Part shown: positions 18,091 through 23,521 of the stretch, piece after piece
Layout: every line of letters begins with the position of its first letter
Position numbering within the stretch: position 1 is the first letter of the stretch
Virus genome (UHGV): UHGV-0297460
Direction: 5' to 3' (one strand)
Length of the DNA stretch: 27,542 bases
DNA from: a virus
Translations under genes and position numbers: made by a program
The notes under the pieces: generated by a model
What the model was told of the DNA's origin: nothing
The model's database searches: none
The model's input: only the letters and a program-made list of their open reading frames with translations

Positions 18091-19467
18091 TCATACGTCA
18101 GCCCCTTGTGCATATCGTCTGCCACGCGCAGCAGGTGCATTTGATGCTGTGCAAATCTGTCTGGCTTCATCCTGGTCACATGCAACAAAGTGTCCGTTGC
18201 AGAACCGCTGGTAAACCGTACCAAGTGAGCCAAAACGGTTTTTCGTCACGATGATTTCAGCAAATGGCGCGGCGCTACTGTTCTCGTCATATACCGCTTC
18301 CCGATAGAGCATGATGATTGAGTCTGCGTCCTGTTCAATGCTTCCTGAATCACGCAAATCTGCGTTTGTCGGGCGTTTGTTTGGTCGCTTCTCAACATCG
18401 CGTGAAAGCTGACTCAGGGAAATAACCGGTGTTTTCAGGTCTTTCGCCATCGCCTTCAGGCTTCCGGAGATGTGAGCAATTGCGAGGTCGTTGCGGTCTG
18501 CTTTCGGCTTCTCAATCAGGCCAAGATAATCCGCCATGATGAGTGAGAGGTTTGGATTTTCCTGTTTGTGCCGTTCTGCGATTGAGCGTATTTCTTCGAC
18601 CGATAATCGCGAGGCATCGACTACCCATACATCCAAATCTGCAAGCTGACTCATGCCGTTAGCAACACGTGCCCAGCCCTCGTCATCCATCGATGCAGGA
18701 TTTCGCAGTACGCTAACCGACATCCTCCCGGCGTTGGCAATGCTTCGCTCTGCAATCTGCAATGCGCTCATTTCCATTGAGAAAATCAATACCCCGCGCC
18801 GGACGTCAGAACCAGGAATAACGCGGCTTGCAACGCCTTCGGCAATCTTCAGCGCCAGTTCGGTTTTCCCCATACCAGGACGAGCAGCGATTATCACCAG
18901 GTCTTCCGCGTTCATCCCTCCGGTGATGGCATCAAGTTCTTCGATTCCGGTCTTCAGGGTATCGGACTCTTCTCCGTTCCTCAGACGCCTGTCAAGCGTG
19001 TCAGTGTAGTCGGTGATGATTTCCCCTAACCGTACAGGTTTAACCTCGTCACGGGGCTTTCTGATGGCTGAGAGACGTTTTACAAGTTCATCCATCGCCT
19101 GACTCAATGCGTCGATGGTTCCGCTTTGGATTGGTTCACGCATTTCATCCATGATTTCCAGCACCAGACGGCGGTGATAGTTATCCGCGACCATTCCGGC
19201 ATATCCCTTCAGGTTTGCGGCGCTCGGGCAGTTTTTGCTGGTCATCAGGATTGACGTGAAATGCTCCTCTCCGCACGCCTCGGCAACCATCAGCGCGTCG
19301 ATTAGGTTTCTGTTTCTCGCCTGCTTCCGGATAACCTCGAAGGCTTTCCGGTAGAGCGGAATTGAAAACGCTTCCGGCTCCAGCGTTGCAAGAACGTCAC
19401 TGGCGGTTGGAGTTAATCCACCAATCAGCAGGCCACCGATAACGCTCGCTTCGATATCCTGTCTCAT
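18091..19467 (-). CDS. Replicative DNA helicase, DnaB family (P22 gene 12 position)
   Basis: 458 aa; Walker [16 protein letters not shown], Walker B/H4 motifs ...[10 protein letters not shown]..., DnaB-like N-terminal domain. Confidence 0.9.
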
Positions 19468-20411
19468 GCAATCCCCCTGTCTGCAAACTTCCCTTCCCGA
19501 ACTCCCGTTAACGAGTCTTCTCTCAGCAGGTAATCAAAATCAGCCGTCCAGCCCGTGTCGTTGTCTCCGAAGTAAAACGGCTTGGCCTGATGCACAAACG
19601 CCCTGACATACGCTCTGAAACCGTCCACGTTTGGCGTTTTCAGTTGCGGGATGATTTTCTTCAGGCGGCGTTTTCGTTTCTCGTTGACCGCAACAGCGTG
19701 TGGCAGTCTGTCACCGACTTCGGTGTTGTAGGCGTTCAGGAAGGATTCGTAGTCGATTCGTTCTGCCTTGCGACGTTCAGGTTTAACCTGCCCATCGCCT
19801 CCCCCATTGGGGGGTAGGGGGGTATTATTTATATTCTTGTTAATACCTTCTTGTTCATGATGTGCGGTTGTTTGTGCGGCTTCATGTGCGCTTTCATGTG
19901 CGGCATGTACGCTGAAAGCCGCGCTATTGCTGGCTTCATCATGTGCGGCATCATGTGCGGTTGTTTGTGCGGCTTCATGTGCGGGTAAATTGTCCATTTT
20001 TTGAGCATATTCATGGTAATTTGTGATGGTTATCACACGGCCTTTTTGCTTCTCTCCATCAATGGAGATCATCCCCTCTTTCACAAAAACCTGAAGCATC
20101 CGCTCAACCTGATCACGGCTTGCTGGCTTGCCATGTCTGTCGCATAACTGAAGACCTAAATCAGCTGCTGTCACAACCAGTTGACCGGGTTGCAGATGCC
20201 ATTCATGACCTTTGAAATTCGCTTTGTATGGCTTTCTGGCGGCATTCAGGAGAAGGTTTTCCCACAGGGTGCGAAGATAAACATCTTTCGCCCATGACTG
20301 TTTCAGAATGCTCCGGTACAACGGAATGTAACCAGTTTTCTGGTTCTCCATCCTGTTGCTCCTGCGCTCGTGTGCGGCGCTGAAATCGTAGATTTTTGCT
20401 GTATTGCTCAT
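19464..20411 (-). CDS. Replication initiator / replisome organizer (lambda O-like), with iteron-encoded His/Ala-rich linker
   Basis: 315 aa; N-terminal replisome-organizer-like domain; internal repeats encode [14 protein letters not shown]...; immediately upstream of helicase. Confidence 0.8.
19857..19990. repeat. Putative replication origin iterons inside the O-like gene (two clusters of four 12 bp-spaced TGTGCGG repeats; 31 bp direct repeat at 19860-19890 and 19953-19983)
   Basis: TGTGCGG at 19861, 19873, 19885 (variant), 19897 and 19942, 19954, 19966, 19978; AT-rich tracts flank at 19820-19850 and 19985-20040. Confidence 0.65.
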
Positions 20412-21110: not shown

Positions 21111-21296
21111 TTATGCCGCTTTGCGGTAAGCGCTTTCTTGATACTTCAGGGCGCCAGCTGTAACGACTTCCAGTCGATAGGCGTCTTTCTCTGGGATGAC
21201 TTCCTTCCACTGAGAGACTGCTGCGTCGCTAATGCCTAACGCTTTAGCTACAGCACGCTGGGTTCCGAAGTGGTCGATAACATCTTTCTTGTACAT
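21111..21296 (-). CDS. cro: Cro repressor (P22 Cro-type)
   Basis: 61 aa, MYKKDVIDHFGTQRAVAKALGISDAAVSQWKEVIPEKDAYRLEVVTAGALKYQESAYRKAA matches P22 Cro as recalled. Confidence 0.92.
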   Translation of the reverse strand: MYKKDVIDHFGTQRAVAKALGISDAAVSQWKEVIPEKDAYRLEVVTAGALKYQESAYRKAA

Positions 21297-21376: not shown

Positions 21377-22027
21377 ATGAAAACTCAATTGATGGGAGAG
21401 CGCATTCGCGCTCGGAGAAAAGAACTCAAGATCAGGCAGGCCGCACTTGGAAAGATGGTCGGCGTGTCTAATGTTGCCATATCTCAGTGGGAACGCTCTG
21501 AGACAGAGCCAAATGGAGAGAATCTTCTCGCCCTGGCTAATGCGTTGAAGTGTTCCCCTGACTATCTGATGAAAGGAGAGGAAAGTCTTTCAAACATTGC
21601 CTATCACAGTAGGCATGATCCAAGAGGGTCATACCCTCTGATTAGCTGGGTGAGCGCAGGATGCTGGATGGAAGCTGTAGAACCATATCATAAGCGTGCA
21701 ATAGATAACTGGTACGATACAACCGTAGACTGTTCAGAAGATTCGTTTTGGTTGGACGTGAAGGGAGACTCAATGACGGCTCCGGCCGGTCTCAGTATCC
21801 CTGAAGGAATGATAATACTCGTCGATCCTGAAGTAGAGCCGCGTAACGGGAAACTGGTAGTTGCAAAGCTCGAAGGAGAAAACGAGGCAACTTTCAAGAA
21901 GTTAGTTATTGATGCAGGCAGGAAGTTTCTAAAACCACTTAACCCACAATATCCGATGATCGAGATCAACGGAAACTGCAAAATCATCGGCGTAGTTGTC
22001 GATGCAAAACTAGCAAACCTTCCATAA
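21377..22027 (+). CDS. c2: Prophage repressor, P22 C2-type (LexA-like autocleavable)
   Basis: 216 aa, MKTQLMGERIRARRKELKIRQAALGKMVGVSNVAISQWERSETEPNGENLL... near-identical to P22 C2 as recalled; C-terminal S24 peptidase region (GDSM...K). Confidence 0.95.
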   Translation: MKTQLMGERIRARRKELKIRQAALGKMVGVSNVAISQWERSETEPNGENLLALANALKCSPDYLMKGEESLSNIAYHSRHDPRGSYPLISWVSAGCWMEAVEPYHKRAIDNWYDTTVDCSEDSFWLDVKGDSMTAPAGLSIPEGMIILVDPEVEPRNGKLVVAKLEGENEATFKKLVIDAGRKFLKPLNPQYPMIEINGNCKIIGVVVDAKLANLP

Positions 22028-22052
22028 GGGGGCATTCGCCCCTTTTTTTTTA
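22028..22052 (+). terminator. Rho-independent terminator after repressor gene
   Basis: GGGGGC-attc-GCCCC hairpin followed by T9. Confidence 0.7.
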
Positions 22053-22093
22053 TTTCCTTTAAAAATCAAAGCCAAACTTAAGTTACGAAAGAA

Positions 22094-22148
22094 AATTTAA
22101 GTTTTCTTCAAAAATGCTCTTGACCATTAATTAAAGAGATCTTAAATT
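22094..22148 (+). promoter_or_regulatory. OL/PL region: operators (perfect palindrome ATTAAAGagatCTTAAAT at 22130-22147; weaker site 22094-22111) overlapping PL (-35 TTGACC 22120-22125, -10 TAAATT 22143-22148)
   Basis: Same half-site family as OR; promoter hexamers with 17 bp spacing. Confidence 0.65.
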
Positions 22149-22464
22149 TAAGCCATCAGCAGGACGCTGGAAGCCAAACGGAACAGATTGGCAGGCTCTT
22201 TAACATTGATGGGATTGTCCCGCCGAAATGCGGGAACCAAAGAGTAGTTGGCTTTGGGGTGACGTGAAGTGCAGCTGCACGACGGCAACCGGAAGATAAG
22301 CACCCGGCGCGTCACCGCCAAAGTCAATTCCATAGGCGTTATGCAGCCGCCACCATATTCAAGAAAGCTGCACAAGAGGTAGGAGGATTTATGTGAATGC
22401 ATAACTTCAAAACCGAGGTTAATTAAATCTCTCGATCCGAGCATCGACCTATTAGGTGGCGAGA

Positions 22465-22493
22465 TGCTCTTTCTGCCCCTCAGTTCGAGGGGC
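22465..22493 (+). promoter_or_regulatory. nutL-like site: boxA-like TGCTCTTTC plus boxB-like hairpin GCCCCTC-agttc-GAGGGGC
   Basis: Located about 60 nt upstream of the N-like gene start. Confidence 0.5.
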
Positions 22494-22548
22494 CAGAAAC
22501 CACTTTGCAATCACTATCAATTCCAAAGTTGTTTCATCGGAGGTCAAC

Positions 22549-22848
22549 ATGACAGTAGTCATTACATATCTGGCTGACGATAACGCCAGAAATCGCCGCA
22601 GAGCACGCAGACAGGCTCAACGTGAACAGGCGATGCAAGAACAGCGACTGGCGCGAAAAATTGCGCTAAAGCTCTCTGGTTGCGTCAGAGCGGATAAAGC
22701 AGCATCACTCGGAATCCTTCGCTGCAAGAAGGCAGATGAAGTCGAGAGTAAACAGAATCGTATTTACTACCGCAAGCCACGCAGTGAAATGGGTGTGACT
22801 TGTGTTGGTCGCCAGAAAATGAAATTAGGCAGCAAACCACTTATTTGA
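22549..22848 (+). CDS. N-like early antiterminator (P22 gp24-like)
   Basis: 99 aa from internal ATG with GGAGG SD; arginine-rich motif DNARNRRRARRQAQREQ near N-terminus; first gene of PL operon. Confidence 0.75.
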   Translation: MTVVITYLADDNARNRRRARRQAQREQAMQEQRLARKIALKLSGCVRADKAASLGILRCKKADEVESKQNRIYYRKPRSEMGVTCVGRQKMKLGSKPLI

Positions 22849-22856
22849 GGTGATAT

Positions 22857-23327
22857 ATGACAAAATCATGGAGCGTACCTTTTCCTGAATCAGAAACTGA
22901 ACATGATGGAATGCCTGTTTTCTGGAGATTCCAAGCGACAGTTGAAGAAGATGGAATCAAAATATTCGCACTTCAATATATAGCTTTTCATCAGACAGAG
23001 CATTATGCATGGTTGGTTCCTGCGCATTGGATTGTTAATTTTAAACCAGCACCAAATCAGTGGTTACAGGAATGGAAACAAAGGAGAAATAGATATGCAA
23101 TTAAGAAAGTAGCAAAAAATGCAGAAAGATCTTTTGCATTCCCGACGAAGAAACTTGCCATTGAAAGTTTATTGCGCCGGAAGAAATACCATTTGATGAG
23201 AATCAAACAAGATTTGGCTGTTGTATCAACTCTTGTTGATGGGATGAAGAATATTGATACATCAACACCAGGTATTGAATATAACTTTGGACACAACCAA
23301 GAAACAGAAAACTGGGTGTTTTATTAG
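22857..23327 (+). CDS. Hypothetical protein (156 aa), low-GC accessory gene downstream of N
   Basis: GAGGTG SD; visibly AT-rich relative to neighbours; followed by its own hairpin and terminator; no family recognised. Confidence 0.55.
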   Translation: MTKSWSVPFPESETEHDGMPVFWRFQATVEEDGIKIFALQYIAFHQTEHYAWLVPAHWIVNFKPAPNQWLQEWKQRRNRYAIKKVAKNAERSFAFPTKKLAIESLLRRKKYHLMRIKQDLAVVSTLVDGMKNIDTSTPGIEYNFGHNQETENWVFY

Positions 23328-23431: not shown

Positions 23432-23457
23432 GCCCTCCAGTGTGAGGGCTTTTTTAT
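23432..23457 (+). terminator. Rho-independent terminator (tL1-like)
   Basis: GCCCTC-cagtgt-GAGGGC followed by TTTTTTAT. Confidence 0.65.
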
Positions 23458-23521
23458 ATGCATACCAATAACGCTTCACTCGAGGCGTTTTCGTTATGCA
23501 ATCAAACAGAAGGAGCATCCT

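Follow-up and report, generated by a model that had tools for sequence, protein, structure and literature searches.

A predicted composite N leader in a lambdoid prophage: an ordinary leader enlarged by an RNA cassette that may act in cis

In lambdoid phages the entire early program is switched on by N, whose leader is a textbook example of control in layers: the nutL site, RNase III processing and translational autorepression. Papers from the Court and Guarneros laboratories are said to have linked RNase III processing in lambda to translational autoregulation of N. Processing of the lambda N-gene leader by RNase III is established (Steege et al. 1987, reference 19 of PMC5371410). The locus described here is the leader between the promoter PL and the N gene of the virus genome UHGV-0297460, in a stretch of 27,542 nucleotides (nt) that we call the window. 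The N leaders of lambda, P22 (gene 24), phage 21 and HK620 share one layout with it—PL, the segment ATCAGCAGGACGC, boxA, boxB, a hairpin closed by CTTTGGGG.../...CCnCCAAAG, a Shine-Dalgarno sequence (SD) and then N—but the window differs from lambda in the specificity of its boxB, which is of the HK620 type, and in the interior of its hairpin, which is unrelated to lambda's. It differs from lambda-type leaders, too, in what lies between the hairpin and the ribosome-binding site of N: a cassette of about 206 nt, in place of some 10–20 nt.

We read the window leader, of a predicted 394 nt, as composite: a standard lambdoid N leader (22155–22328) continued by an inserted cassette (22329–22534), previously unannotated, that is structurally conserved and a candidate new RNA motif. 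To the reading as a whole—a composite leader with a cis-regulatory cassette, anatomy and mechanism taken together—we give a probability of about one half. The anatomy and the homologies are very probably as described below; that the cassette acts in cis on the expression of N, most likely on translation or stability of the N mRNA, is a tentative proposal. The parts of the leader are as follows.

22120–22125 and 22143–22148, plus strand: PL, a sigma-70-like promoter found by promoter scan; -35 TTGACC, 17-nt spacer, -10 TAAATT
22155–22194, plus strand: A22155, where the PL transcript is predicted by homology to start, and ATCAGCAGGACGCTGGAAGCCAAACGGAACAGATTGGCA, the conserved segment at the 5' end of the leader
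22195–22205, plus strand: nutL boxA GCTCTTTAACA, the same motif as the nutR boxA
22218–22235, plus strand: nutL boxB hairpin TCCCGCCGAAATGCGGGA (TCCCGC-CGAAAT-GCGGGA), stem and loop identical to those of the nutR hairpin
22252–22323, plus strand: long leader hairpin, 72 nt, with a 15-bp basal stem and one bulged G (22317); -32 kcal/mol, z = -3.9
22329–22534, plus strand: inserted RNA cassette, about 206 nt, between the hairpin and the N ribosome-binding site
22539–22848, plus strand: N gene; SD GGAGG 22539–22543, ATG 22549, end 22848; 99 amino acids (aa), with the arginine-rich motif DNARNRRRARRQAQREQ

The segment ATCAGCAGGACGC stands at the 5' end of the leader in the window, lambda, P22, phage 21 and HK620 alike. 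In lambda the OL1 operator (35591–35607) lies just upstream of its first A, which we take, the lambda record having no annotation for it, to be the PL +1 (35582). Because the segment is shared with lambda, transcription of the window leader is expected from A22155, and this would place 394 nt before the N ATG at 22549. The long gap between a PL with its -10 at 22143–22148 and N had already been remarked in an earlier, sequence-only reading of this DNA, and it holds: in alignments PL falls on the PL/OL annotated for phage 21 and CUS-3, and it is embedded in operator repeats of the P22 type (operator-like inverted repeats at 22093–22111 and 22131–22149). That reading called the leader unusually long, and so it is, at 394 nt compared with about 190–226 nt in lambda, P22, phage 21 and HK620, but the excess is due solely to the insertion, and the rest of the leader is ordinary. 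Its first 180 nt (22148–22328) share 99% identity with HK620, mEpX2, HK630 and Stx phages, and 80% with phage 21, and in all of these the counterpart of that segment is the entire leader; in most relatives, the N ribosome-binding site follows within about 15 nt. The first part of the leader, preceded by PL with its operators and followed by a co-oriented antiterminator gene of the N family, has every sequence feature expected of classical lambdoid N leaders, and we assign it to that family on these grounds.

The nutL site lies upstream of the leader hairpin, at the position annotated as nutL or boxA-L in HK620 and phage 21; the boxB hairpin at 22218–22235 falls inside the annotated nutL of HK620. 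Its partner is nutR, after cro on the minus strand:

21104–21093, minus strand: nutR boxA TGCTCTTTAACA, between cro and cII, read from the sequence
21079–21060, minus strand: nutR boxB TTCCCGCCGAAATGCGGGAA

The two sites form a matched pair. N, over residues 1 to about 70 and including the arginine-rich motif, carries a single substitution relative to the N protein of HK620, in keeping with a boxB of the HK620 type. The sequence-only reading had put a nutL-like boxA and boxB after the inverted repeat, at about 22465–22493. Since the upstream boxA and boxB are those of nutR, and since they occupy the nutL position of HK620 and phage 21, the downstream element is not nutL; it consists of parts of two cassette hairpins, to which we return. 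One side observation may be recorded here: boxA and the adjoining spacer (CTTTAACATTGAT, 22198–22210) show, over 13 nt, 77% complementarity with the loop and 3' arm of the last cassette hairpin (ATCAATTCCAAAG, 22516–22528), and this may be chance.

The inverted repeat reported earlier, GGTGACG...CGTCACC with a palindrome inside it, is present at 22258–22316 and belongs to the base of the 72-nt hairpin: GGTGACG (22258–22264) pairs with CGTCACC (22310–22316), and the enclosed palindrome GTGCAGCTGCAC (22269–22280) forms a small inner hairpin. In lambda, the hairpin of GGCTTTGGGGTGTGTG...CACACACCaCCAAAG is followed shortly 3' by the N ribosome-binding site. Its flanking and basal sequences are homologous to those of the window hairpin, GGCTTTGGGGTGACGTG...CGCGTCACCgCCAAAG, likewise placed between nutL and the N ribosome-binding site, and to those of P22, phage 21 and HK620. 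Among 18 leader variants the interiors range from about 40 to 130 nt and are unrelated in sequence, and all of them keep the closing stem and the bulge. When both arms of the basal stem from 10 phage types are aligned, 88.7% of cells are paired, compared with 42–49% when the arms are slid against each other; nine of the 15 pairs have changed on both sides, for a covariation score of 0.441 against 0.146 ± 0.037 in shuffled alignments. The suggestion that the leader might hold an RNase III processing site is supported by this homology: 22252–22323 is homologous to the RNase III-processed hairpin of the lambda N leader, and is a putative site of cleavage here. Hairpins of this kind seem to tolerate inserts of any sequence in their interior. 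That of one related locus (L082:6020–6165), for example, includes a segment resembling the T-arm of a tRNA, GGTTCGACTCC, with a flanking stem, in which ARAGORN calls no tRNA.

The insertion itself is best seen by comparison with leaders that lack it. Where the HK620 sequence, ...CCAAAGTCAAT|CATCGGAGGTCAACATG, is marked by the bar, the window carries an additional 206 nt; the HK620-type leader without the cassette and that of HK140 with it make up a natural near-isogenic pair. On a background with the nutL of P22, Cronobacter phage ENT47670 has 98.4% identity to contig L047 once the cassette is disregarded, which L047 carries between perfect 14-bp direct repeats of CAAAGCCATTTCAC; ENT47670 and P22 have a single copy of this sequence. 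Direct repeats also flank the cassette of the window:

22324–22332 and 22517–22525, plus strand: direct repeat TCAATTCCA (9 bp)
22318–22324 and 22522–22528, plus strand: repeat CCAAAGT

Because of these repeats the ends of the cassette can be placed only to within a few nt. The repeats also fall on the CCAAAG motif that is conserved in the leader, so that recombination explains them as well as target-site duplication does. No terminal inverted repeats of the cassette were found.

Within the cassette we recognize four hairpins, H0 to H3, and, between the first and second of these, a strong SD followed by two very short reading frames:

22342–22372, plus strand: hairpin H0 (UGCAGC/GCUGCA); 97.8% of cells paired, four of six pairs changed on both sides with the L049 and plasmid copies aligned
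22381–22396, plus strand: strong SD AGGAGG 22381–22386, AUG 22391–22393 and UGA 22394–22396, a start-stop
22397–22426, plus strand: mini-ORF (open reading frame, ORF) MHNFKTEVN*, 9 codons, its AUG directly after the UGA
22439–22469, plus strand: hairpin H1 (GAGCAUC/GAUGCUC and an inner stem)
22475–22493, plus strand: hairpin H2 (GCCCCUC-AGUUC-GAGGGGC), formerly described as boxB-like
22496–22535, plus strand: hairpin H3; 14 of 16 positions paired; ends 4 nt 5' of the N SD

Structure prediction and covariance among relatives, which had been proposed as a check on the leader, both favor conserved RNA structure. The whole leader folds with z = -4.4, a stability that none of 100 shuffles equals, and the cassette helices covary, as the basal stem of the leader hairpin does. 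In a MAFFT alignment of the cassette, 94.4% of helix cells are paired, compared with 37–44% when slid, and eight pairs have changed on both sides, compared with 2.9 ± 1.1 in shuffled alignments. With the divergent L049 copy and a plasmid copy added, an alignment fitted to a covariance model—and leaning for that reason toward the model—gives 94.1% against about 43%, and 11 changed pairs against 3.6 ± 1.3, a number that none of 500 shuffles reaches. The model was built from 18 phage copies of the cassette, with the plasmid copy outside the seed. It finds one copy in the window, and scores the L049 copy at 143 bits and the plasmid copy at 87 bits (E = 1.5e-23); it has no match in two stretches of HK022, in P22, HK620 or phage 21, or in the N-leader region of lambda. 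The compensatory changes are easily followed by eye. H0 becomes CCGCU/AGCGG in L049; H1 becomes GAACAUC/GAUGUUC in L065, L082 and the plasmid, and is replaced by a wholly different stem in L049; and H2 becomes CCCCGUC/GGCGGGG in CUS-3 and CCCCACC/GGUGGGG in L049. H1 and H2 together (22436–22495) fold at -27.7 kcal/mol with z = -3.6, and H3, in which three pairs have changed on both sides, at -10.4 kcal/mol with z = -4.9. The cassette is mosaic: H0 exists in two versions, H1 and H3 in several each. The idea that the leader encodes a regulatory RNA thus survives as a plausible reading for the extra length, where a covarying, structured cassette of about 206 nt is found.

An alternative fold may be mentioned in passing. 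The loop of H0, CGCCACC (22348–22354), is perfectly complementary to GGTGGCG in H1 (22455–22461), and the plasmid copy has an analogous pair, CCAGATC/GATCTGG; the pairing is not kept in the CUS-3 type. Such a long-range, unproven interaction could enclose the SD and the mini-ORF.

The element once taken for nutL, at about 22465–22493, is made up of the boxA-like 3' arm of H1 (TGCTCTT) and of H2; the boxA-like TGCTCTTTC matches eight of the nine bases of the rrn boxA. It might be asked whether H1 and H2, with this sequence, form a second site of the nut or put kind, modifying RNA polymerase or blocking Rho and perhaps serving long early operons of phage and plasmid alike. The boxA-like bases do adjoin a GC-rich hairpin, and the layout of two hairpins loosely resembles the put RNA of phage HK022, paired stem-loops of about 70 nt at the very start of the PL transcript, with a twin on the PR side, that bring about antitermination without N (PMC9378689). 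The plasmid copy, moreover, lies some 10 kb past mobI(A/C) in a long run of co-oriented genes. But the boxA-like bases are paired in H1, where GAGCAUC/GAUGCUC changes to GAACAUC/GAUGUUC, and they turn into GUUCUUUC or GGGCUUUC by compensation. What is constrained, then, is the pairing, and not a single-stranded site for NusB/E. The H2 loop varies between lineages (AGUUC, UAAUU, UUAU, CAAU), so that neither a conserved single-stranded boxA nor a conserved loop is found at 22465–22493. There is no copy on the PR side either: nothing similar occurs in nutR, whose boxB differs, and the model finds no second copy in the 27.5-kb window. On the comparison with nutR and the covariation we reject a second nut site at this position. 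As for put, the cassette resembles it in its paired stem-loops and in belonging to a lambdoid phage's early leftward leader, but it lies at about +175 to +380 from the predicted PL start (the element in question some 290 nt downstream), is single-copy and coexists with N and nut, and neither HK022 stretch (L087 and L088, assumed to include the put sites) matches the model; we have set a put-like element aside on these counts. The C-rich, G-poor composition typical of Rho-utilization (rut) sites is absent from the cassette. A site of this general kind strikes us as very improbable, and the earlier proposal of an additional terminator or antiterminator target fares no better, with a boxA-like arm that is paired, a loop that varies, no U-tract and no PR-side copy. 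An intrinsic terminator in the leader was considered as well and rejected: the terminator scan is negative there, and H2 has no U-tract.

The single-stranded part of the cassette is its most constant part. AGGAGGRTTTATGTRAAT occurs in every cassette lineage, that of the plasmid included, and the 18-mer AGGAGGRUUUAUGURAAU is invariant, always with AUG followed at once by UGA or UAA. No conserved pairing is found between H0 and H1, so the SD and start-stop are uncovered. The mini-ORF has eight or nine codons in seven of the eight lineages; its length and the position of its stop are conserved, and its peptide poorly so (MHNFKTEVN, MPTFNFEIN, MHEYQDYK). Selection appears to maintain four plus-strand helices and, exposed among them, a very strong translation start with nothing behind it but a start-stop and a mini-ORF. 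In SD spacing and in the AUG with its immediate stop (AGGAGG-AUUU-AUG-UGA-AUG and nine codons), the arrangement has the sequence features of a start-stop or minigene, and translation there is predicted.

Several known elements invite comparison. Start-stop and AUGUGA sites in Escherichia coli bind ribosomes, terminate, re-initiate and modulate expression (bioRxiv 10.1101/520783; PMC9841429), and minigenes in general sequester tRNA in cells defective in pth (PMC2490762). The cassette resembles these sites and the bar minigenes of lambda in its strong SD, its AUG with an immediate stop, and its very short ORF on an early leftward transcript. The bar minigenes are ORFs of two codons in PL transcripts, located elsewhere in the PL operon; the cassette, unlike them, sits in the N leader amid four conserved hairpins, is portable, and has an ORF of about nine codons. 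Certain 5' untranslated regions (5' UTRs) stabilize the mRNA, among them that of E. coli ompA and those with the STAB-SD elements of Bacillus. With these the cassette may have a functional analogy—a hairpin near the (processed) 5' end, and a strong ribosome-binding sequence other than that of the main gene—and it has no sequence relationship.

The cassette is predicted to be part of the N mRNA, and we imagine its working somewhat as follows. At nutL, the N protein of HK620 type would be loaded onto RNA polymerase. A cut by RNase III in the leader hairpin would then separate nutL from the N message and leave the cassette as a 5' UTR of about 220 nt, the processed 5' end of which might be protected by the hairpins and by ribosomes loaded at the start-stop and mini-ORF. 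In lambda, the RNase III stem and the nutL-bound complex of N and polymerase govern translation of N. The cassette might also, or instead, move the N ribosome-binding site some 200 nt away from that complex and that stem. In either case, the outcome would be an altered dependence of N translation on RNase III and on N autorepression.

Might the cassette encode something that acts in trans instead—a small RNA freed by RNase III or RNase E, or the nine-residue peptide? Its compact conserved core of about 170 nt (H0 to H2) does stand alone on a plasmid with no downstream gene; the length of the mini-ORF is conserved, and some of the codon changes within it are synonymous (TTC/TTT, ACC/ACT, GAG/GAA). 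We consider a product of this sort decidedly unlikely, nevertheless: no promoter within the cassette, sense or antisense, passes the promoter scan, it has no intrinsic terminator on either strand, the peptide is poorly conserved and the CUS-3 type lacks the AUG. Nor does Rfam 15 offer a match. At gathering thresholds no family is found in the window, and at E values up to 10 nothing relevant appears in 21900–22900 or in 22150–22550; the leaders of 10 related loci and the plasmid copy of the cassette likewise yield no family. The gathering-level matches in the related loci (sok, a tRNA and Lambda_thermo) all lie elsewhere. A minus-strand TTGACC where N starts was considered as a promoter and dismissed; no usable -10 goes with it, and the L047 type does not keep it.

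Among 50,697 phage records three have the cassette, representing two phages, HK140 (two records) and CUS-3. It occurs in 163 of 5426 complete E. coli genomes (about 3%), including CUS-3-type prophages of K1/extraintestinal pathogenic E. coli (ExPEC), with a median of one copy per genome, and on about 65 IMG/VR contigs and 20 metagenome contigs; the metagenome scan returned known lineages only. A search for the cassette pattern in representative genomes of 185,579 species gave no matches. It is joined to nutL and N of at least four specificities—the HK620, P22, L065 and L049 types—so whatever it does is independent of a particular pairing of N with boxB. In one locus, L044 (minus strand), an unrelated ORF of 66 aa stands between N and the cassette with its H3/SD junction, an arrangement implying that the 3' junction is not tied exclusively to N. 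The CUS-3 record labels the region 'boundary sequence', and that of HK140 has a hypothetical protein there; neither a description of the cassette nor an occurrence of its sequence was found in the literature searched. It probably spreads by recombination in conserved flanks (CCAAAG... and ...TTTCAnnGAGG), rather than by transposition. A dispersed element derived from an insertion sequence or a miniature inverted-repeat transposon was rejected: the cassette has no terminal inverted repeats, it occupies a median of one place per genome, and the copies examined are in N-leader context.

It could be, all the same, that the cassette is a neutral or selfish insertion, whose hairpins reflect its origin or its own propagation and have nothing to do with the control of N. 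Presence and absence in near-identical leaders, direct repeats of 9–14 bp at its edges, a mosaic make-up and a copy in an unrelated plasmid context all fit such an insertion, and so does the dispensability suggested by its occurrence in just three of 262 matching phage records. On the other hand, the cassette keeps a constant place and orientation relative to N, occurs once per prophage with no copies scattered through 5426 E. coli genomes, and showed no terminal inverted repeats. The compensatory changes in four helices and the 18-mer, which never varies, suggest that it is the plus-strand RNA on which selection acts. We judge a neutral or selfish insertion rather unlikely.

A plasmid copy complicates matters. 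It belongs to one lineage of conjugative MOBH plasmids (11 records) and lies about 10 kb downstream of mobI(A/C), in a run of co-oriented small genes and beside a convergent hok/sok locus. It has H0, the SD with start-stop and mini-ORF, H1 and H2. As a side observation, the 3' arm of its H2, GGAGGGGC, is followed directly by ATGAATTGA (L010:1601–1630), which would be a second minigene, of two codons, with its SD sequestered in a hairpin. One can picture the cassette as a portable RNA device acting in cis, common to the early operons of phages and the leading region of a conjugative plasmid, that protects long early transcripts; ribosome loading at the start-stop, together with structured RNA, might oppose Rho or RNase, or act on RNA polymerase, independently of N. 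We hold this to be quite improbable.

Action in cis on N, to return to our own proposal, has several points to answer. The plasmid copy is one of them. It lacks H3, and there is no gene downstream on the same strand before the convergent hok/sok, so it fits poorly with a role specific to a downstream ribosome-binding site. Most lambdoid phages, close relatives among them, do without the cassette, which therefore appears to be dispensable. In the CUS-3 type the AUG of the mini-ORF has been lost, although an overlapping GUG there opens a nine-codon frame closed by the same UUAAUUAA stop cluster. Small and shallow, the family has about nine sequence lineages, and its covariation comes from few independent events. 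A further point is the basal stem, which has 15 bp and a bulge; its cleavage by RNase III in this phage is predicted by homology, and processing, translation of the mini-ORF and any effect on N are all predictions from sequence.

Protein-coding explanations of the leader can be dealt with briefly. Two frames come into question:

22148–22510, minus strand: antisense ORF, 120 aa, not a gene
22269–22382, plus strand: 37-aa ORF, the longest on the plus strand of the leader, corresponding to HK140_048

The sequence-only reading found no convincing plus-strand ORF in the leader and thought the antisense frame spurious, and we agree on both counts, there being none longer than 37 aa on the plus strand. 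Antisense ORFs of 120–134 aa are open in the window and in the CUS-3/UTI89 and VG38 types, and the annotation pipeline PGAP calls them in UTI89 and VG38; the HK140 record annotates a plus-strand ORF of 41 aa. The public 'hypothetical protein' coding sequences over the leader are L008:1020–1409 (minus) and L009:1020–1424 (minus), from UTI89 and VG38, and L003:1322–1447 (plus), from HK140. Since relatives that are nearly identical do not keep these frames, they appear to be artefacts of annotation. The antisense frame, rich in Ser, Leu and Arg, is interrupted or shifted in HK140, HK620, L011, L018, L065 and L082 at 92–99% DNA identity, and because of 2-nt indels the N-terminal part of its product in the window is unrelated to that of the CUS-3 types. 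The plus-strand ORF begins inside the variable interior of the leader hairpin and is missing from other hairpin types. That either is a real gene is scarcely credible.

The surroundings are those of a lambdoid prophage immunity region, and 22030–22560 is 100% identical to prophages of E. coli ATCC 11775 and of many ExPEC and avian pathogenic strains. Nearby are:

21377–22027, plus strand: repressor gene, P22-c2-like
22026–22045, plus strand: cI terminator, the sole plus-strand terminator near the leader
21111–21296, minus strand: cro, with a lambda-like cII also on the minus strand

N itself is mosaic. Its C-terminal 30 or so residues, NRIYYRKPRSEMGVTCVGRQKMKLGSKPLI, are of the phage 21/lambda type, and HK620 and P22 share a different C-terminus; its match to Pfam N_peptide is weak (E = 0.0016, under the curated cut-off). 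Beyond N lies an ORF of 156 aa (22857–23327) for which a Pfam search gave no match, and just past this are two terminator-like hairpins with T-runs, at 23432–23449 and 23470–23489 (plus strand), candidates for the first N-suppressible terminator or terminators of the PL operon. Farther away, next to cII, an ORF of 315 aa (19464–20411, minus strand) has a position that suggests, by itself, an O-like replication-initiator gene. Inside it, at 19873–19984, are 12-bp periodic repeats, TGTGCGGCTTCA and CATCATGTGCGG, in about 2.7 and 4 copies, that look like origin iterons and encode a His/Ala-rich protein repeat.

What does this mean for the N leaders of lambdoid phages? The anatomy of this one is corrected, its real nutL being upstream of the hairpin. 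The base of the RNase III-type hairpin is conserved by covariation across lambda, P22, phage 21 and HK620-type phages, and its interior is freely replaced. Should the cassette turn out to be neutral, it would still be a source of recurrent mis-annotation. Were it a portable device of phages and plasmids, it would represent a new class of leader element, one that protects operons, and no passive insertion. And if it alters how N is translated or how stable the N mRNA is, nature would have provided in it a swappable module for tuning the entry point to the choice between lysis and lysogeny.

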